This document shows, in pieces, positions 1 through 60,684 of a stretch of DNA of 64,000 nucleotides. The notes under the pieces were generated by a model. That model worked only from the letters and a program-made list of their open reading frames with translations. It did no database searches and had not been told where the DNA came from. Both the position numbers and the translations under genes were made by a program. This DNA comes from a phage, in sequence record NC_135732.1; one strand, written 5' to 3'. Within the stretch, counting starts at the first letter, position 1. Every line of letters starts with the position of its first letter.

Positions 1-12
1 CATCAGCAAAAA

Positions 13-113
13 GGTGCTAGGTGATGGAATCGAACCACCTATGTATTCAACGACTACCTCGTCTATTTTCAGGATTAAAAATCCTCGCCCTTGCCAAAGG
101 GCTTACCTAGCTC
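13..113 (-). tRNA. tRNA-like element, atypical (about 99 nt); possible degenerate or insert-containing tRNA
   Basis: Minus-strand read: 7-bp acceptor stem GCTAGGT/ACCTAGC, D-arm GCCC-loop-GGGC, canonical T-arm GGTGG-TTCGATT-CCATC. No clean anticodon arm; best guess loop UUUUUAA (anticodon UUU) followed by a ~30-nt extra region. Confidence 0.35.
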
Positions 114-209
114 AGTATGTTGACCATGTTGCTAGTCGGCGATGACGACTGTAACATTTGATAATCCGGTTCTGCTTCCGGCTTTCGCTTAATTACAAGG
201 TCAACAATA

Positions 210-300
210 TGGCTGAGGGTAATGGAATCGAACCATCATCAAGTCATCCTCAACGGGACGGTTTTCAAGACCGCTTGAGCACCATTGCTCCCTACCCTCA
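210..300 (-). tRNA. tRNA-Ser (anticodon UGA), long variable arm, CCA encoded
   Basis: Hand-folded on minus strand: acceptor TGAGGGT/ACCCTCA, anticodon loop CTTGAAA, T-arm GATGG-TTCGATT-CCATT, 3' CCA at 210-212. Confidence 0.75.
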
Positions 301-414
301 TTTATAAACAATACTGATAATGACACTGATTTTCGAGCAGTTAGTGACTAGTATAAACGACGATAAATATCAATGCCATTATCTGTATGATTTATGCATT
401 TAAAACTATAAATT

Positions 415-501
415 TGGTGGGGAGTGGTGGAGTCGAACCACCCGAGTCGCAATGACAATAGATTTACAGTCTACACCGCTACCCCTACGGGATAACTCCC
501 C
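415..501 (-). tRNA. tRNA-Tyr (anticodon GUA), long variable arm, CCA encoded
   Basis: Acceptor GGGGAGT/ACTCCCC, anticodon stem GTAGA/TCTAT with loop CTGTAAA, T-arm GGTGG-TTCGACT-CCACC. Confidence 0.75.
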
Positions 502-505
502 AATT

Positions 506-580
506 TGGCACCCCGTACTGGACTCGAACCAGTGTCAACGGCTTAGAAGGCCGCTGCTTTATCCACTAAGCTAACAGGGC
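506..580 (-). tRNA. tRNA-Arg (anticodon UCU), CCA encoded
   Basis: Acceptor GCCCTGT/ACGGGGT (with G:U pairs), D-stem GCTT/AAGC, anticodon stem GCGGC/GCCGT with loop CTTCTAA, T-arm ACTGG-TTCGAGT-CCAGT. Confidence 0.75.
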
Positions 581-23205: not shown

Positions 23206-23484
23206 ATGAGCTGCGAAAAATCTTTTTTCATCATCATTTACGGTAAGGATAACTGCCCACATTGTGTCAGAGCAAAAGAATTTGCAATCAGCAAAGGTCT
23301 GCCTTTTGTATATAAGACACTTGGCGAGGGCTACACAAAAGAAGAGCTTATTGAGAAGTGTAGTCCAATCGTCCCCCGAACGTTGCCGCAGATCTTCTTA
23401 GAAAGCGATCTTGACAGTATCCATATAGGCGGTGCCGACGATTTCATCTCTTTTGTTAAGAATGGTTTTGGAGAGAAAAAGTGA
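23206..23484 (+). CDS. glutaredoxin-like protein
   Basis: Active-site CPHC in IIYGKDNCPHCVRAKEF; located between nrdB and nrdD. Confidence 0.8.
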   Translation: MSCEKSFFIIIYGKDNCPHCVRAKEFAISKGLPFVYKTLGEGYTKEELIEKCSPIVPRTLPQIFLESDLDSIHIGGADDFISFVKNGFGEKK

Positions 23485-24334
23485 AAGTTGTAAAACGGGA
23501 CGGTAGAGAAGAGTTCTATAACGGAATTAAGGTGATCAAGGCGGCAGAGTCCGCCTTACTTGAGTCTGGACATACTGAAGAAGAAGCTTACCGGATCGCC
23601 TGCGCGGTTAATGAAGTTGTTGCTAACAATCTACCAACCGACCAGTGCACAATCTCTGTAAAAAATATCCATATCCTTGTTGAAGATGCTCTTATGGATA
23701 TGGGTTTAAAATGTGCAGCCAGAGAATACATCCAGTATAGACAGACAAGAGATAATAACAGAGAGGCAGGTGGAAAACTGCTTGCAGATATTAGTGGCTT
23801 CTTGGATCGAACTTGTGATGAATTTACAAAAGAAAACGCAAATAAGCCTACTAATCATGTACACACTCATCGCGACCTGCTTGCAGGTATTCTTAGCAAA
23901 CACCTTGCATCAACACAGATCCTGCCAGACCGTGTCTCCGAAGAGCACAATAAAGGCTTCATCCATGTGCATGATCTTGACTACTTGATCAGTCCGTTAA
24001 CAAACTGTTGTTTGGTAAATTATCCAGATATGTTGGAAAACGGATTCAACATTGGTAACGCCCATGTCAGTAAGCCGAAGTCAATAGGGGTTGCAACAAC
24101 AATCCTTAGCCAAATCTCTAGTGCGGTAGCTAGTGCTCAATATGGGGGTCAGACTATGAGCCATATTGATCATTATCTGGCACAGTATGCTGAAGCGACC
24201 TATGAGAAGAACCTTAAATTTTGCCAGGAACATTGGTTGCCAGATGCTGAGACTGTTGCAATGCAAATGACAGATAAAGACGTATTTGACAGCATGCAGA
24301 CTTTGCTCTATCAAATCAATACATTAACTTCTGT
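23481..24334 (+). CDS. nrdD: anaerobic ribonucleotide reductase NrdD, exon 1 (3' boundary approximate)
   Basis: Exon ends in the conserved block YQINTLTS; ORF then hits a stop at 24342 inside the putative intron. Confidence 0.8.
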
Positions 24335-25128
24335 CAACGGTTAACAAACTGGCCGTTGTAAAACTCTCCTAACCTCATAAGAGGGGTCGGTAAATCCGGC
24401 TAACGGGGAACGCTAAGGCGAAAGCTATGCCAATCCCGTGACTAGTTCTTACAGGAGTTGGAACGGTTGTAACGACTAACGAAAGGCAGAAATGCTTGAC
24501 AAACATTTCTGAACCAAGTAGTGTAGGGGTTAGTTGAAATACTAACTTCGAAATGGAGAGGCTCTATGAAAAAGATCATTCTTAATGGTGAAGAATCAAA
24601 CTATGTGATTGATGAGGTTGGAAACGTATACGGAAAACGTGGAATGCTACACCCAATATTGTGGGGAGGTTATGGAAAAGGTAACAAGCATGTTAAACGC
24701 CGTTATATGTACTCTTTCGACCACAAAGGTAAAAAGATTCGAATCCAAACCTCAAGGATTGTTGCCTTGTATTGTTTGCCGGATGTCCCAGAAGACCCTG
24801 AAAACTGGGAAGTGAATCATAAAGATGGCAATACATTGAATGATCATCCGTCTAACCTAGAGTGGGTTTTGCCGGAAGATAATAAGAGACATGCTTTCCG
24901 AACAGGACTTTGTCCAGGTAAGTGCTATAGGAAAGTGCAGGCATACAAAGGGAAAACCTTGGTGGGTGAATATCCTTCACTCTATGCCTGTGCAAAAGCC
25001 TTAAATTTGAACGTAGGTAACGTTCATAGGGCTATTGAAGGAAATGCCGAAGGTAAGCATCTCACAATAAAGGGTTATTATCTTATTGAAGTAGAGTAAG
25101 AGATAGTCTGGCCCTGTGGAAACACAGG
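24335..25128 (+). mobile_element. putative group I intron in nrdD carrying an HNH homing-endonuclease ORF (boundaries +/- 3 nt)
   Basis: Conserved NrdD sequence resumes in frame at QQTPFITLSLGLDTS...ITPVFPKVLFFLEEGVN; exon 1 ends with U and the intervening sequence ends with G. Confidence 0.6.
24566..25099 (+). CDS. HNH homing endonuclease (intron-encoded)
   Basis: HNH core WEVNHKDGNTLNDHPSNLEWVLPEDN; RBS GGAGAGG before the ATG. Confidence 0.8.
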   Translation: MKKIILNGEESNYVIDEVGNVYGKRGMLHPILWGGYGKGNKHVKRRYMYSFDHKGKKIRIQTSRIVALYCLPDVPEDPENWEVNHKDGNTLNDHPSNLEWVLPEDNKRHAFRTGLCPGKCYRKVQAYKGKTLVGEYPSLYACAKALNLNVGNVHRAIEGNAEGKHLTIKGYYLIEVE

Positions 25129-26401
25129 GAGGAGACAGCAGACTCCATTCATCACATTAAGTTTAGGACTGGATACCTCGGTCTTTGGTAGAATGATTAC
25201 CAAAAATTACTTGAAAGTCCACAAAATGGGTCTTGGTGAAGAACGGATCACACCTGTGTTCCCTAAAGTGCTGTTCTTCCTAGAAGAGGGTGTCAACATG
25301 AACCCTGGAGATCCTAACTATGATTTGAAACGATTAGCTCTGGAATGCTGTGCAGAACGTATCTATCCTGACTTCGTATCTGTACCACTAAATAGGAAAG
25401 TGACAGGCTCGACAGATGGCAAAGTAACGAGCATGGGTTGCCGGAGTTTTCTTAGCAAATACAATGACTTGGAAACAGGCGAGGAGAAATACCTTGGCAG
25501 ATTTAACTTAGGCGTTGTTAGCCTTAACCTGCCAATGATTGCGGCAAAAGCTAAGACGGAAGGTGTTGATTTCTTTGCAGTTCTTGACGAATACTTGGAT
25601 CTTGCATACGAGGCTCACCTTGTAAGGGTTAACCGTCTAAAAGGAACAAAGGCAGGGCAGAACCCCATCATGTGGTGTGAAGGCGCTCTTGCTCGCCTGG
25701 ATCCTGAAGAAAGTATTGATAAACTCTTCTATGATGGGTACGCTTCCATCAGCATTGGGTATATTGGTGTGTATGAAACCTGTCAGATTTTGGGCAGAGA
25801 AGGTGACAAGGCTTTAGCTCTTGGAATCCTTCAGCACATGAGAGATGCTTGTGAGCGGTACAAGAAGGAAAGTAGACTAGCATTTAGCTTGTACGGCACT
25901 CCTTCTGAGAGTCTATGCTATAAAGCTGCAACCTGTCTGGATCGTGAATATCCTGAAGTGTTGAAGCACGAGCATGAATATCTCACCAACAGTTTCCATC
26001 AGCCAGTATGGATAAATAGCTCTCCTTTTGATAAGTGGGAGTATGAGGAAGGTTTTGCTATGATCTCCTCTGGTGGCAACATCGGATACGTAGAAACACC
26101 TAACCTGAAAAACAACCTGGATGCTTTAGAGGCTCTTGTTGACTTCGGGTATAAACACATTATGTATTTTGGTATTAACCAACCTGTGGATAAATGTCTC
26201 AAGTGTGGTTTCTCTGGTGAGTTCAGTGCAACAGCTAAAGGCTTTGTATGCCCAGAGTGTGGAAACCATGAAGAGGGAACGATCAGTGTAATTCGACGTG
26301 TGTCTGGATACCTTTCCAGTCCTAACTCCCGTCCTTACAATAAAGGTAAGCAAGCGGAAGTTATCGAGCGAGTTAAGCACTACGGAAGTTGTGGTTGCTG
26401 A
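25129..26401 (+). CDS. nrdD: anaerobic ribonucleotide reductase NrdD, exon 2
   Basis: DPNYDLKRLALECC block, C-terminal zinc ribbon CLKCG...CPECG and glycyl-radical motif RRVSGYL. Confidence 0.8.
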
Positions 26402-57064: not shown

Positions 57065-57418
57065 TTAGTGACAATCACCCCAATTACGACCACACAAGTA
57101 TTCACCTGTGATCTGGAACGGGACTCCCATCATTTTAGAAGCTTGCCAGAAGCAATGCACCACCATTTCACCCACCGGGCTCCAGATAAGTTCAAGCTTC
57201 CCGTCATCGTTCAGGATAGGATCGTACACCGTGTTTCCGTCTCTGTCAACCACTTCGTTTCCGTTCTCATCCTTGCGTGCCTTTTTGTACTTATGACCGT
57301 CAAACACATGAAGTTTGGCTTCCTGCTCTGCCTTAAATGCTTCCAATTCTTCAATTGTGTCGAAGGTGTACACAGTCTTATACTTAGGCGTGTCAGGGAC
57401 CTGAAGTTGGTACTCATC
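57065..57418 (-). CDS. DNA polymerase (family A), exon 2 (C-terminal part)
   Basis: Begins DEYQLQV, completing motif C (...IIYYH|DE) when joined to exon 1; ends LCGRNWGDCH like Pol I (GENWDQAH) and T7 (GPNWAICH). Confidence 0.6.
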   Translation of the reverse strand, partial: DEYQLQVPDTPKYKTVYTFDTIEELEAFKAEQEAKLHVFDGHKYKKARKDENGNEVVDRDGNTVYDPILNDDGKLELIWSPVGEMVVHCFWQASKMMGVPFQITGEYLCGRNWGDCH

Positions 57419-58260
57419 CAATAGTTCAGGTAGGTCGTTAAGCTACCCCGCACCATTACGTGCACAGCCATACGGTTTCCTGTATGGATCGGACTATCTC
57501 ACTACCTTGTTACCAAGGCACCTCTCATTTCGACCGCACTTGCTGGCCTACTCTACTCGCTTCTTCACACCAAACTATGTTGGAGCTATGCTTTCGATAG
57601 TCTCTGAACGTTACTACCAGGTGTAGTTTTTAGAGATATGTTTCCACTGTCTTCTTTGCTTTATGGCTCTGACCGTCTCATAAGGATACCCAAGATCCCT
57701 AATCTCGCATTGTCGTAGACCACTCTGCAACAGTTCGCAAATCTCCGTTACCTCATCCTCGGTCAGCACAGCGTTGGCATTATACTCACCGACTGGCCTT
57801 ACTCTGAGTTCATTATCGTAGGCGTGTTTGATATTTCCACCAGGGGTAGTCCATTCCAGGTTCCAGTGTGCATTGTTGTACTTATTTCCATCCTTATGGT
57901 TCACCCATGTGAGCTTTTCAGGATCAGGGTTCGGTACAAAGCATTCAGCAACCAAGTGGTGGACACCTTTTGTGCACTGCTTCCCCTCGATGAGCATGGT
58001 TACGCAAAGGTAACCTCTACCATTATCAAAACAAAACATTGTTGTATGATCACGTTTCGATAAAGGTATTGTTCCATCATCAAACACGGTATACCCGTGA
58101 TAATCAGCTGATCTAGCCATTTTAACTACACCCCTTTAGTCTTCGCTGCGGATTAGCATATTAAGCTTTTACCATGTTCAGGTGTAAAAGTCAACTTAGC
58201 CTTCCCGTCAATTAAAGAGGTTTTCGACGTGCATCACTGCACGAAGCCACAATGTTATTT
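57419..58260 (-). mobile_element. putative group I intron interrupting the DNA polymerase at motif C, carrying an HNH ORF
   Basis: Exon 1 ends ...TAC CAT (last nt U); the 842-nt intervening sequence ends with G; splicing restores YYHDEY. Confidence 0.55.
57614..58120 (-). CDS. HNH homing endonuclease
   Basis: HNH core LTWVNHKDGNKYNNAHWNLEWTT; same subfamily as the nrdD intron ORF. Confidence 0.8.
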   Translation of the reverse strand: MARSADYHGYTVFDDGTIPLSKRDHTTMFCFDNGRGYLCVTMLIEGKQCTKGVHHLVAECFVPNPDPEKLTWVNHKDGNKYNNAHWNLEWTTPGGNIKHAYDNELRVRPVGEYNANAVLTEDEVTEICELLQSGLRQCEIRDLGYPYETVRAIKQRRQWKHISKNYTW

Positions 58261-60684
58261 ATGGTAATAAATAATACGACGAACACCTTCATCGTACCAC
58301 CCGCGCTTCACCATTTGGTGGTGCATGAGTATCCCAACTAAGTCACACAACGATGCACCACCATTCTGTTGGTATGCATTAAGTAAAGAGTGTTTAGATC
58401 GGGTCCAGATAGCATGACCATCAAAAGAGTAGATAAACTTCTTACCCGTTGCTTCCCAGAATTTCTCCAGATCTTCTTTACGCCCCTTAAGACCGGGGTT
58501 GGCATCCCAAAGTGCATCGATTACCCTTTGTCCCAACTCTGGGGAGATATCCAGCATGTCTGCAACTTTGTCTTTTTGTGCCCCATACATAACCCCATAC
58601 GTGATAGGTTTACCGTCGTTACGAGACACCTCTCTGCCTGCTACTTTTGTATATGCCTCAGCATTGTTTTGGTGTGCGTCCCCGTTACTTACAACATCAT
58701 AATACAAGCCGTTGTCGAACTCAAAGGCACCCCAAGCCCCGATAAGCTGCTCTAAGTTGGACCCGTCAATACCGATCTCAAAGTATCCCGGAGGAACACC
58801 CCACAGACTACGCATCTCTTTACCCATAACAACTTTAGGAGATGGTTTAGGCATGTTTGCACAAATACTGTGTTTCTGTCTGGAAGTGTTTGTTAATCCA
58901 GAGCTTTTAGCAGGAAGCTTATGGTCAATCTTCAAACGTGGGTGATTAAGAAGACCAGTGTCAACCTTATCCTCCTTGATTGGATCAAGTACCGATCTGC
59001 GGTTTCGCAATGATAACCACAAGACGATATCTTTAGCCATCTCTCCGTTCAATTTTTCAAGATTCGGGCACAGGTGTCCAAACGTATCTTTCAGTTGCGG
59101 AGAAGTAATAAGTGCCCTAGCTTTTCTACGTATTTTCCCGAATACTTCCTTTTTAATCCTTTCGGAGTTAGGAAAGCTTCGGAACTTGTGCACGGTTGTC
59201 TGGAACTTAGCATCAGTTTTGTTCCAGAAGTTGATAATTAGATCACAATACTCTGACTCTAAAAGCTCGTCCATATATGCATATACTCGTGCATCAACAT
59301 CTGCATCAGGTAGAGCTTTCTTCTTGCTGTCTTTAGTTACATCCTTAGTTCTCCACATTGTCGGAAGCCAACCAGCACTGATCAGATACCGCTTAATGTC
59401 GTCCTGATTGCTGATTTTCATAGGTATCTTGCAGTCCGGCATTCGCTTCTGCTGTAGATCACTTATTGCCTGATCCATTAGCTCTTTAGGTAAAGGTTGT
59501 GGTGTGGAGGTGCCCTTAATATAGCCTCTCAAGAAATCAGCCATCTTATCTGGGTCTTTGCAGCCCATCTCTTCACACCATTTTATCCCCATCTTACTGA
59601 CATCTCCTGTGGAGGTAAATGCTCGCTTAGGCGGGGCTTTGAACTCTAAAGCACTCATGTCTACAGGATAGCCAAGCTTATCTTTTAACCATTTCCAACC
59701 ATTATTGGAAATTGTCCCATCTTGGTTAAATGGCTTTTCAGGGAACTTGGGCCGCTGAGACATTGACAGCTCTTTTAAAGGTAGTTGTGGTTCAACACGA
59801 TCAGCGATTTCTTTCATCCACGCATCGCAACGGTCACGTAAAGCAATAGCTCCATCTATGTCAAAATACACACCCTGACGGGCCTGCAGCTCCATCAGGA
59901 AGTGCTGCAGCATGCCTCGGCGCAATGCGTTCTTCCAGGTGATTTTCTTGAACCCTTTCGGCTTCTCTTTGGCTGGATCGTACATAAAGTTCTGCATGTC
60001 AGATTTGCCGTAGAATACACCTTTTGATTCCGCTACCAGCTCTTTCCAGAGCAGCTCCTGGATGATAACGTCCTCGAATACACGATCCACATACTTCCAC
60101 AACGGAAGATCGCGCCAGTCATCAATTTGAACTTTCTGGTTACCAAGGGCGTAGCCCCATGCCATAAGGCCGTGAGGACCAACAGGCTGCATTTTCTTAG
60201 TAACCGGGTTGAATACAGAGTCCGGACAACCTTTTGGTAAAGGGCGATCAGGCCACAAGATTCTGCTCATCGCCAACGTATCAAACAGGTTAACCTGGTG
60301 GTCGTTGATAGTCCCCATGCATTTAGGATCACGGAACATATCAAAATGAATACCGGATAATCTTTCCATCAGCATAAAGTCATAACTGTAGCAGTTATGG
60401 CAGTTCAAAGCTGTTGGTGACCAGTCGGAATTGCCTGTAAGCCAACCTTCCAACTCCGAAAAATCTGCTATGCGAACTTCAAAATCTTTATGAAGAGTTT
60501 TCTTTGCCAGAATAAAGTTCTTAGCCTTCTCTATATCCTCTTCGGAGTAGTGTGTGCGGTCATTTAGAGGAAGGAACAGCATAAAACGGTTCTTATTCAG
60601 CTCTTTAAACAGGCCGCAGTGATAATAAAGATCTGGATCTTCCAGCAAACCGGATGACTCAAAGTCGAACGACCACATGCTCAT
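58261..60684 (-). CDS. DNA polymerase (family A, T7-like), exon 1
   Basis: 3'-5' exo motif FDFESSG; motif A IGIDGSNLE; motif B RNDGKPITYGVMYG; track ORF reads through into the intron (H-K-stop). Confidence 0.8.

Follow-up and report, generated by a model that had tools for sequence, protein, structure and literature searches.

An 842-nt mobile group I intron (subgroup IA2) interrupts, as we conclude with high confidence, the DNA polymerase gene of an rV5-like coliphage at the boundary between the His and Asp codons of motif C. The window (the whole stretch of 64,000 nucleotides that was analysed, NC_135732.1) is 98.5% identical to Escherichia phage I29 and other Vequintavirus genomes, a resemblance by which its source is assigned to the Vequintavirus (rV5-like) coliphages. 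Catalytic splicing in this phage is probable, judging from the structure of the element and from a homologue that splices in another genus. The features of the interrupted gene are collected in Table 1.

Table 1. Features of the polymerase gene and its intron (positions in the window).
Feature	Position	Strand	Basis
Exon 1, family A DNA polymerase, codons 1-808 (Met to His)	58261..60684	-	ORF list, Pfam, T7 gp5 alignment
Group I intron, subgroup IA2, 842 nt, A58260 to terminal G57419	57419..58260	-	Rfam RF00028, allele alignments, covariation
P1 hairpin: exon CCAU + intron AA (58264..58259) / UUGUGG (58252..58247)	58247..58264	-	cmscan alignment, pair counts
P2 hairpin CGUGCA-GUGA-UGCACG	58228..58243	-	6/6 pairs compensatory among relatives
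P3 5' strand CCUCUU, partner 57526..57521	58215..58220	-	3/6 pairs compensatory, 100% paired
P4-P5-P5a arm: UG(A)CGGG ... P5a CUUUUAC/GUAAAAG ... GCU AA UCCGCA	58147..58210	-	P4/P5 pair counts; P5a by inspection only
P6a + homing-endonuclease module	57613..58141	-	alignment of window, JLBYU08 and JEP1; stem by inspection
HNH homing endonuclease gene (putative), 168 aa	57614..58120	-	ORF list, PHROG, PDB, Pfam
P7 5' strand GACUAUC, inside conserved GUUCAGAGACUA element, partner 57498..57492	57596..57602	-	cmscan alignment, pair counts
P7.1 (GCU CCAAC AUAG UUUGG ... AGC) + P7.2 (GGCC AGCAAGUGC GGUC)	57532..57586	-	P7.2 pair counts; P7.1 by inspection
P3 3' strand GAGAGG	57521..57526	-	pair counts
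P8 hairpin GCCUUG-GUAA-CAAGGU	57504..57519	-	5/6 pairs compensatory
P7 3' strand GAUAGUC, inside conserved GAGAUAGUCCGAU element	57492..57498	-	cmscan alignment, pair counts
P9 (CCAUACAG GAAA CCGUAUGG), P9.1 (GCAC/GUGC) and P9.2 (GGUAG/CUACC) hairpins	57429..57487	-	compensatory changes in every helix
Terminal (omega) G, 3' splice site next	57419..57419	-	invariant in 13/13 aligned introns; intron-less homology resumes at next base
Exon 2, 117 codons DEYQL...NWGDCH + stop	57065..57418	-	ORF list; PHROG 8888 DNA polymerase, E 5.8e-58

The polymerase gene and its junction

The upstream ORF (60684..58255, minus strand) encodes 809 aa and ends in ...VRRIIYYHK before its stop, and the downstream ORF (57421..57065, minus strand) opens with TTG followed by DEYQLQV and has the C-terminus LCGRNWGDCH. 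A preliminary description of this DNA had reported both, with an HNH ORF between them, and had placed the end of the upstream ORF within motif C; the ORF list agrees, and a phmmer comparison with the PDB supplies the alignment to T7 gp5 that it had suggested as a check. In this comparison (residues 633-813 against 468-658, E 7e-16), the last aligned residues of the joined polymerase, HDE, match H653-D654-E655 of T7 gp5, so the break parts the motif C His from the catalytic Asp. The His codon CAU (58263..58261) is followed by AAA UAA, and an unspliced reading of exon 1 adds one Lys (AAA) before the stop UAA (58257..58255). At the other end, G57419 is directly 5' of GAU GAG UAC, and the TTG of the downstream ORF overlaps this terminal G of the intron; neither an ATG of its own nor a Shine-Dalgarno sequence was found for exon 2. 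Joining U58261 to the base after G57419 takes out 842 nt and yields an in-frame protein of 925 aa, ...IIYYH/DEYQL... (the slash marks the junction; predicted junction peptide IIYYHDEYQLQVPDTPK), which carries palm motifs A, B and C of a T7 gp5-like family A polymerase with the catalytic Asp in HDE. Exon 1 alone scores 27.9 bits with Pfam DNA_pol_A, below the 34.3 cut-off. This is the sole replicative polymerase gene seen beside the primase-helicase.

The junction is fixed exactly by intron-less alleles. In rV5_ev156, O157 typing phage 4, V18 and others, the 178 residues around the junction are contiguous at 99-100% identity (...YYHDEY...), and the polymerase CDS of rV5_ev156 (2778 nt) equals the predicted 925 codons plus the stop. 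Their junction DNA reads ATTATTTATTACCAT/GATGAGTACCAA (e.g. Murica, rV5_ev156), and, when intron-plus alleles are compared with intron-less ones, the DNA homology is lost at query position 120/121, which is the predicted junction; the splice sites that had been proposed after U58261 and after G57419 are thus correct to the nucleotide. Precise excision therefore restores a conserved reading frame that exists uninterrupted in nature. The question whether homologues would have the two ORFs as natively separate subunits is answered by the same alleles, which have instead one contiguous 925-codon gene in many near-identical phages.

An intein or another in-frame insertion acting at the protein level is refuted by these sequences: AAA UAA closes the frame after a single codon of the element, which is not a stop-free insertion with Cys, Ser or Thr at both junctions, the HNH ORF has a start of its own, and the RNA structure described below accounts for the whole element. 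What could recall such an insertion is found elsewhere in the same polymerase gene, where JEP1 and Mangalyan have an intein-like in-frame insertion of 323 aa; in the JEP1 insertion, Pfam detected no intein domain, even though the termini resemble those of inteins.

The additional residues in exon 2 that had been noticed earlier are also present, with 116 residues after the motif C Asp against 50 in T7 gp5 (chain length 704). They correspond to a lineage-specific insertion common to other Vequintavirinae polymerases and missing in those of Vibrio K470 and Aeromonas TS9. The second FDGH block, likewise present as described, reads FDGH in Av-05 and SSE121, LDGH in CR9 and MEGR in phiTE, and is a four-residue recurrence without evidence of significance.

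Structure and covariation of the ribozyme

A default Rfam scan of the window, run at the gathering threshold, reported only tRNAs and no intron. With an E-value threshold, RF00028 matched 58270..57469 (minus strand) from end to end of the model with 33.2 bits (E 2.9e-6, search space 1.7 kb); in this match, the U.G pair of P1 falls exactly on the predicted 5' splice site, and 510 nt are inserted in P6. The gathering score of this model is 50 bits, an operational threshold rather than a biological criterion, and the window copy falls below it because the 510-nt HNH ORF is inserted in P6a. Alleles that lack the ORF, and related ones, exceed it: JEP1 (73.7 bits), JLBYU08 (72.5), EPFV3 (64.7), Avunavirus 19-1-2 (91.2), Vibrio K470 (77.3) and CR9 (56.7). 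Outside the ORF, the JEP1 allele and the window intron are 97.3% identical. Group I introns with an ORF in a loop thus escape the default Rfam threshold, and the ORF-less allele exposes the match to the model.

The HNH-bearing group I intron put forward in the preliminary description, for which a foldable core had been the proposed check, is borne out by the complete structure: the core folds, P3/P7 pseudoknot included, and covariation extends over P1-P9.2, this pseudoknot and P10. In the set of 13 distinct introns, the paired fraction is 97.0% of 808 pair cells, and sliding the partners lowers it to 35-41%. The paired percentage is inflated, as the tested structure was drawn partly from the same sequences, a bias that the RNAalifold prediction and the compensatory counts mitigate. 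Compensatory changes on both sides occur in 27 of the 63 pairs. In none of 500 shuffles did the percentage paired, the covariation score or either both-sides count come up to the observed value; the number of further pair types did not stand out (141/500 shuffles). RNAalifold recovered independently P1, P2, P3, P4, P5, P7.2, P8, P9, P9.1 and P9.2, with 27 compensatory pairs. These results come from a core-only alignment, the whole ORF-deleted MAFFT alignment having been dropped since it misaligned P4-P6 where arm lengths differ, and P5a, P6, P6a and P7.1 were consequently assigned by inspection.

The window sequence keeps every core helix intact. P1, with the wobble pair U58261.G58250 at the 5' splice site, is 100% paired in the 13 introns, its four exon pairs being all invariant. 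The guide sequence CAUUGUGG (58254..58247) can pair with both exon ends, forming P1 and also P10, in which GAUG of exon 2 (57418..57415) faces CAUU of the guide in 4 bp continuous with P1 (98% paired in the 13 introns). P7 is supported as a pseudoknot by a U-A to C-G compensatory change; its inner five pairs are fully paired, its two outermost pairs are not conserved among relatives, and 86.8% of its cells are paired overall. Subgroup IA2 is defined by additional P7.1 and P7.2 elements between P7 and the 3' strand of P3, linked by G-U-A (PMC3428280). The window intron has this arrangement, with P7.1 at 57586..57559 and GUA plus P7.2 at 57551..57532; P7.2 is 100% paired with 2 of its 4 pairs compensatory, and GUAG is invariant.

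The endonuclease gene and the alleles of the intron

A long-range P6a stem, ACUA..GGUGUAG (58140..58126) with CUACACC..UAGU (57626..57613), surrounds the HNH gene, whose last codons and UAG stop fall inside the 3' strand of P6a; P6a may mask the translation start of the gene. The 528-nt segment stands where ORF-less alleles have a 14-nt hairpin, CAUCCGAGAGGAUG, and the ORF in this peripheral loop is present or absent independently of the ribozyme. The predicted protein matches PHROG 59 HNH endonuclease (E 8e-38), its motif VHHLVAECF...VNHKDGNKYNNAHWNLEW aligns with I-HmuI (PDB 1U3E, E 2.8e-5), and Pfam HNH_3 gives 19.8 bits, below the 24.8 cut-off. By these similarities, the P6a loop gene is classified as a separate selfish gene encoding an I-HmuI-like HNH endonuclease, with a predicted endonuclease activity and target. 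The HNH protein of APECc02 is 100% identical, and phiTE and TS9 have another HNH ORF inside the homologous intron. IA2 introns with nicking HNH endonucleases are known from the family A polymerase genes of SPO1, SP82 and Bastille (I-HmuI, I-HmuII, I-BasI) and of Pf-WMP3 (I-PfoP3I). The window protein shares with the SPO1-type endonucleases only about 30% protein similarity, confined to the HNH core, and the SPO1-type polymerase introns are inserted in the fingers region rather than in motif C (PMC3428280).

In the sampled rows of 114 records, approximately half are intron-less, about a quarter have an ORF-less intron of 276 or 328 nt, and about a quarter have the intron with the HNH gene. The extended P5a is missing from the 276-nt allele, which is the form in the record of type phage V5 (DQ832317). 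The rV5 genome paper reportedly describes a polymerase of 775 aa and mentions introns in the terminase gene only. Such presence/absence polymorphism among phages more than 90% identical is consistent, at the level of their sequences, with intron mobility.

These alleles bear on two other explanations. The gene might have been cut in two by a free-standing HNH gene, without splicing, the 809-aa and 117-aa fragments being made by separate translation and assembling into an active enzyme, for which NrdA of Aeromonas phage Aeh1, split by mobE, is a precedent. Most GenBank records present the polymerase as two CDSs, with a further one for the HNH protein; TTG is formally available as a start for the downstream ORF, and one HNH-associated insertion in another gene of phage CB7 does not splice (PMC7344957). 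We nevertheless judge this very improbable: a split of the Aeh1 type would have no ribozyme around the endonuclease gene and a downstream fragment with its own start, whereas here the ORF lies within a group I core that is complete and covaries, the TTG coincides with the end of the intron without a Shine-Dalgarno sequence before exon 2, the ORF-less alleles retain at the same site a 276-329-nt ribozyme for which a free-standing endonuclease gene would have no use, and the split would put the His of a single catalytic motif in one fragment and its Asp and Glu in the other.

Decay of the element, which would once have spliced and would now be inactive in this isolate, leaving a polymerase that is non-functional or otherwise rescued, is scarcely credible. 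An A.C mismatch at one P9 pair of the window copy and the low Rfam score could be read in this way, but every core helix is intact, viable isolates such as APECc02 share 99% identity with the window in the intron core, the intron-plus-HNH form occurs in about 30 plaque-forming phages that were isolated independently, and no other replicative polymerase gene is seen beside the primase-helicase.

Relatives, proposed mechanism and significance

The intron is not new. HeinrichReichert (Bas58, MZ501073), APECc02, FV3, FFH2 and I29 share 92-99% DNA identity with the window over the whole 3.7 kb, with the same splice site and HNH gene and no substantive difference. The BASEL record of Bas58 (MZ501073) already joins the polymerase CDS from two pieces, with a homing endonuclease inside, and comparative genomics was used to set intron boundaries in the BASEL paper (PMC8594841). 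Because the same element is thus annotated in near-identical phages, we regard it as real but ordinary. Other Vequintavirus records mostly have two polymerase CDSs, none among those examined calls the RNA a group I (IA2) intron, and our literature searches found no description of a Vequintavirus polymerase intron.

Homologous introns occupy the H/DE site in CR9, PBES02, A73, phiTE, SSE121, Av-05, Vibrio K470 and Aeromonas TS9. A weak DNA match to the 43-kb phage ECO104 4-5-2 (L009) was set aside, as its related intron lies at a different polymerase site (...SASNP/..QQLP). The polymerase introns of Pectobacterium phage CB7 (phiTE-like, Certrevirus) were found to splice by RT-PCR and cDNA sequencing (PMC7344957), a junction compared here through its relative phiTE. 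The downstream phiTE intron has the identical ...IIYYH/DEYQL... site, 71% identity to the window intron core and 48.7 bits with Rfam. It differs by its P7.1, a short hairpin, and by its HNH ORF, which is another gene in another place (from the P5 extension through P4' and P6 to P7); in phiTE and CB7, unlike in the window, a second intron lies further upstream in the polymerase gene. A comparable intron reportedly was described by Bonocora and Shub in 2004 in the T7-like phages PhiI and W31, with the endonuclease I-TslI. According to another report, PhiI and W31 carry an IA2 intron at the motif C His (position 881 of E. coli Pol I), which is the site of the window intron, with an HNH ORF in P6a and self-splicing in vitro and in vivo (PMC3428280). 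These phages belong to another family and polymerase lineage, and the likeness is drawn from this description.

In the mechanism that we propose, the polymerase gene would be transcribed as one pre-mRNA and the intron would fold into a P1-P9.2 ribozyme whose guide holds the exon 1 end CCAU in P1, with the U.G wobble. An external guanosine would attack after U58261, the exon 2 start GAUG would then take the guide as P10, the terminal G57419 would dock in P7, and ligation of the exons would give the mRNA for the 925-aa polymerase (...YYHDEY...). Unspliced RNA would yield the 809-aa product, devoid of the motif C carboxylates. During mixed infection, the HNH enzyme would presumably nick or cut intron-less polymerase alleles near the insertion site, and repair would copy the intron into them (homing).

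The intron stands a single base ahead of the catalytic Asp codon, and the unspliced frame stops after one codon. On an unlikely reading, the intron would be no mere passenger: splicing efficiency would fix the proportion of full polymerase to an 809-aa form that retains the N-terminal part but is dead for synthesis, which, if true, would place a splicing-dependent control on replication of the phage. As a separate part of this unlikely reading, the HNH enzyme would, as I-HmuI does, nick intron-plus alleles besides intron-less ones and thereby exclude the polymerase region of co-infecting relatives.

That mobile introns insert at the most highly conserved codons of replication genes in phages is a known rule, of which the intron described here is one more example. 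Its H/D site is common to rV5-like, Vibrio and Aeromonas phages and, according to PMC3428280, to T7-like phages. The practical value lies mainly in the annotation of Vequintavirus polymerase fragments, roughly 55 Vequintavirus records having the intron and most of these listing two 'DNA polymerase' fragments or 'hypothetical proteins'. The four allelic states found in one phage species (no intron, 276 nt, 328 nt and intron with HNH gene) would, if this reading is true, make a tractable natural system for the homing cycle.

An intervening sequence in the DNA polymerase gene

The 3.7-kb polymerase region shares 98.5% identity with that of Escherichia phage I29 and 92-98% with those of dozens of other Vequintavirus (rV5-like) myoviruses. 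The upstream neighbour of the polymerase on the minus strand encodes a T7 gp4-like primase-helicase, in agreement with the annotation of relatives. The reading frames are as the preliminary description had given them, every statement being borne out by the ORF list and the sequence (Table). Indeed, the YYH/DEY join that it proposed is obtained by excising 58260..57419 (842 nt): CAU is then followed in frame by GAU, and the joined gene encodes 925 aa. Residues 633-813 of this 925-aa product align with T7 gp5 468-658 (phmmer against PDB) and the restored HDE falls on T7 H653-D654-E655; the break, which had been placed at motif C, therefore directly precedes the catalytic Asp of this motif. The reading frame meets a stop after a single codon of the element, which rules out an intein.

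Table: Coordinates of the features discussed, in window positions
Feature	Position	Strand	Details and source
Polymerase ORF, exon 1 part	60684..58255	-	809 aa, C-terminus VRRIIYYHK-stop (ORF list, sequence)
HNH ORF	58120..57614	-	168 aa (ORF list)
Third ORF	57421..57065	-	Formal start TTG, then DEYQLQV; end LCGRNWGDCH
Post-motif-C insertion	Exon 2 57068..57418, residues about 10-75	-	Alignment of relatives
Split nrdD (anaerobic ribonucleotide reductase)	23481..26401; intervening sequence about 24342..25190	+	Pfam, ORFs
nrdD N-terminal part	23481..24344	+	Pfam NRDD positions 1-154
HNH ORF inside nrdD	24566..25099	+	ORF
nrdD C-terminal part	25193..26401	+	NRDD 180-562 and glycyl-radical domain
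tRNA gene cluster	15..580	-	Rfam

A tblastn search with the 178 residues around the junction recovers them as one continuous stretch (99-100% identity) from rV5_ev156, O157 typing phage 4, V18 and others, and the polymerase CDS of rV5_ev156 measures 2778 nt, that is, the predicted 925 codons plus a stop. In DNA alignments, the intron-less allele reads ATTATTTATTACCAT followed directly by GATGAGTACCA, the same as the exon ends of the window. This intron-less junction, used as query, matched 114 Vequintavirus-type records; in the long-intron records, homology ends at query 120/121, the predicted junction. Among 60 rows taken at even spacing along the ranking of matches, 30 have no intron, 14 have one that lacks the ORF (276 nt in 12, 328 nt in two) and 16 have an intron with an HNH ORF. 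A mobile element leaves just such a presence/absence pattern among genomes more than 90% identical. The Escherichia phage V5 record (DQ832317, 126665..127180) has the 276-nt ORF-less intron in a region labelled DNA polymerase plus hypothetical proteins. About 16 unannotated GenBank records (MG0656xx), named "Campylobacter phage" with Campylobacter jejuni as host, share 87-97% identity with these Vequintavirus genomes of E. coli phages; their host labels look doubtful.

The extra length noted in exon 2 is present (116 residues past the Asp versus 50 in T7). It corresponds to a lineage-specific insertion of 48-66 aa right after motif C, including FDGH (alignment of relatives), common to Vequintavirinae polymerases and absent from those of T7 (gp5), Vibrio K470 and Aeromonas TS9. 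The second FDGH block does exist, but its conservation among relatives is only partial, and we see no reason to rank it above a four-residue coincidence.

Ribozyme core and covariation

The Rfam scan at gathering threshold gave no match at the polymerase intron. With an E-value threshold, the Intron_gpI model matched end to end (58270..57469, minus strand, 33.2 bits, E 2.9e-6), as the group I proposal had anticipated, and the U.G pair of P1 falls exactly on the proposed 5' splice site. The score is low because of a 510-nt insertion within P6: ORF-less copies of the same intron reach 72.5 bits (JLBYU08, 329 nt) and 73.7 bits (JEP1, 328 nt; outside the ORF, it shares 97.3% identity with the window intron), and the shorter 276-nt form of EPFV3 reaches 64.7 bits. 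The conserved R and S elements, which contain the P7 strands, are GUUCAGAGACUA and GAGAUAGUCC in the window intron. P7.1 and P7.2 are linked by GUA, which assigns the intron to subgroup IA2 (PMC3428280). Exon 1 CCAU and exon 2 GAUG form a continuous pairing with the guide sequence CAUUGUGG (58254..58247); P1 and P10 thus specify exactly the junction proposed beforehand.

Covariation was scored on same-site polymerase introns of 13 distinct phages, whose cores were aligned after ORFs and variable arms had been cut out: five Vequintavirus (window, APECc02, Mangalyan, JEP1, EPFV3), Avunavirus Av-05 and 19-1-2, Seunavirus SSE121, Certrevirus CR9 and phiTE, A73 (unplaced Vequintavirinae), Vibrio phage K470 and Aeromonas phage TS9. 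Over P1, P10, P2, P3, P4, P5, P7 (pseudoknot), P7.2, P8, P9, P9.1 and P9.2, 97.0% of the 808 pair cells hold a base pair, versus 35-41% with partners slid by 1-3 columns. Both sides change in 27 of 63 pairs (108 cells), and compensatory pairs make up 6/6 of P2, 5/6 of P8 and 3/6 of P3. In all of 500 shuffles, the percentage paired, the covariation score and both counts of both-sides changes stayed below the observed values; the number of further pair types was unexceptional (141/500). Since the scored structure was drawn from these same 13 sequences, RNAalifold was run as an independent test and recovered the same nested helices, with 27 compensatory pairs.

Three observations contradict a split gene expressed without splicing (as in Aeh1 nrdA/mobE): this covarying ribozyme, the occurrence of ORF-less introns at this very site, and the lack of both an ATG and a Shine-Dalgarno sequence for exon 2. 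A dead intron in the window phage is unlikely, as its core is 99% identical to those of other plaque-forming isolates and all core helices are intact. We have high confidence in the group I intron interpretation; splicing itself is inferred for the window phage.

The HNH gene and other elements

The HNH ORF matches PHROG 59 (HNH endonuclease, E 8e-38) and, over VHxLVA...HKDGNKxNN...NLxW, also I-HmuI (PDB 1U3E, E 2.8e-5), the HNH nickase encoded in the polymerase intron of SPO1. Compared with ORF-less alleles, a 528-nt module (58140..57613) stands in place of a 14-nt P6a hairpin; its ends are complementary (ACUA..GGUGUAG and CUACACC..UAGU), which puts the ORF within an extended P6a. The HNH stop codon lies within the 3' strand of P6a and a purine-rich stretch 5' of the ATG within the 5' strand, an arrangement that might have a regulatory effect. 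At the same H/DE site, phiTE (L015 1950..2636) and Aeromonas TS9 (L013 960..1698) carry a homologous ribozyme with a different HNH ORF, whose translation begins in a P5 extension (GGAGGAAGAAAUGGGUAAUCAGCAG) and continues across P4' and P6 as far as P7. Different HNH ORFs in one intron family suggest independent invasions by endonuclease genes.

The window polymerase gene has the motif C intron only. Avunavirus, Seunavirus and Certrevirus have an extra group I intron about 350 nt upstream (Rfam 36-52 bits), in some cases with an HNH ORF (records L010 2414..2617, L011 14..217, L012 69..217 and, in phiTE, L015 895..1565). JEP1 (L002 2530..3498) and, at the same place, Mangalyan (L003) show a 323-aa in-frame insertion in exon 1 after ...VVSNGDAH, starting CYSGDTQILT and ending ...VAVCGN before Cys. 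From these termini it appears intein-like; Pfam found no intein domain in it. The window has no such insertion at the equivalent point (after codon 671, about 58672).

Within the terminase large-subunit genes of these rV5-like phages lie 73-nt matches to the P4-P6 core of the polymerase intron, at 84% identity (e.g. LR694610 59916..59993, MZ501093 1215..1292), which assigns the terminase introns described for rV5 to a related family. Elsewhere in the window, nrdD is probably interrupted by another group I intron with an HNH ORF, reminiscent of T4 nrdD/sunY: past 24341 the sequence resembles such an intron (AACGGU/UAA pairs with GCCGUU; P4-P5-like CUAACGGGGAACGCUAAGG...CCAAUCCCGU), with a weak Rfam match (24842..25129, 27.7 bits). 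In the tRNA cluster, 509..580 and 15..111 pass the Rfam threshold; two more tRNA-like hits, 215..299 and 419..501, stay under the threshold of the tRNA-Sec model and are probably tRNAs with a long variable arm.

Relation to known introns

In the BASEL record of phage HeinrichReichert (97.6% identity here), the polymerase CDS is given as a join of two pieces that enclose a putative homing endonuclease gene; the authors derived the intron boundaries from comparative genomics (PMC8594841). In CB7 (Certrevirus, a sister genus), two HNH-bearing polymerase introns both splice, by RT-PCR and cDNA sequencing (PMC7344957); the downstream intron of its relative phiTE occupies the identical IIYYH/DEYQL site. 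Self-splicing introns of subgroup IA2 that carry an HNH ORF in P6a also occur in the T7-like phages PhiI and W31, where they interrupt the polymerase at Pol I position 881, the His that is concerned here too, according to a passage of PMC3428280 that cites Bonocora and Shub 2004. In the rV5 genome paper (PMC3606486), the polymerase is 775 aa long and the terminase gene is the only one for which introns are mentioned; we found no description of the Vequintavirus polymerase copy as a group I intron in the open-access literature. The window element is of a known kind, and the very same element is already annotated in public records. The main use of the finding is annotation correction, with a reminder for Rfam users that introns with an ORF score under threshold.
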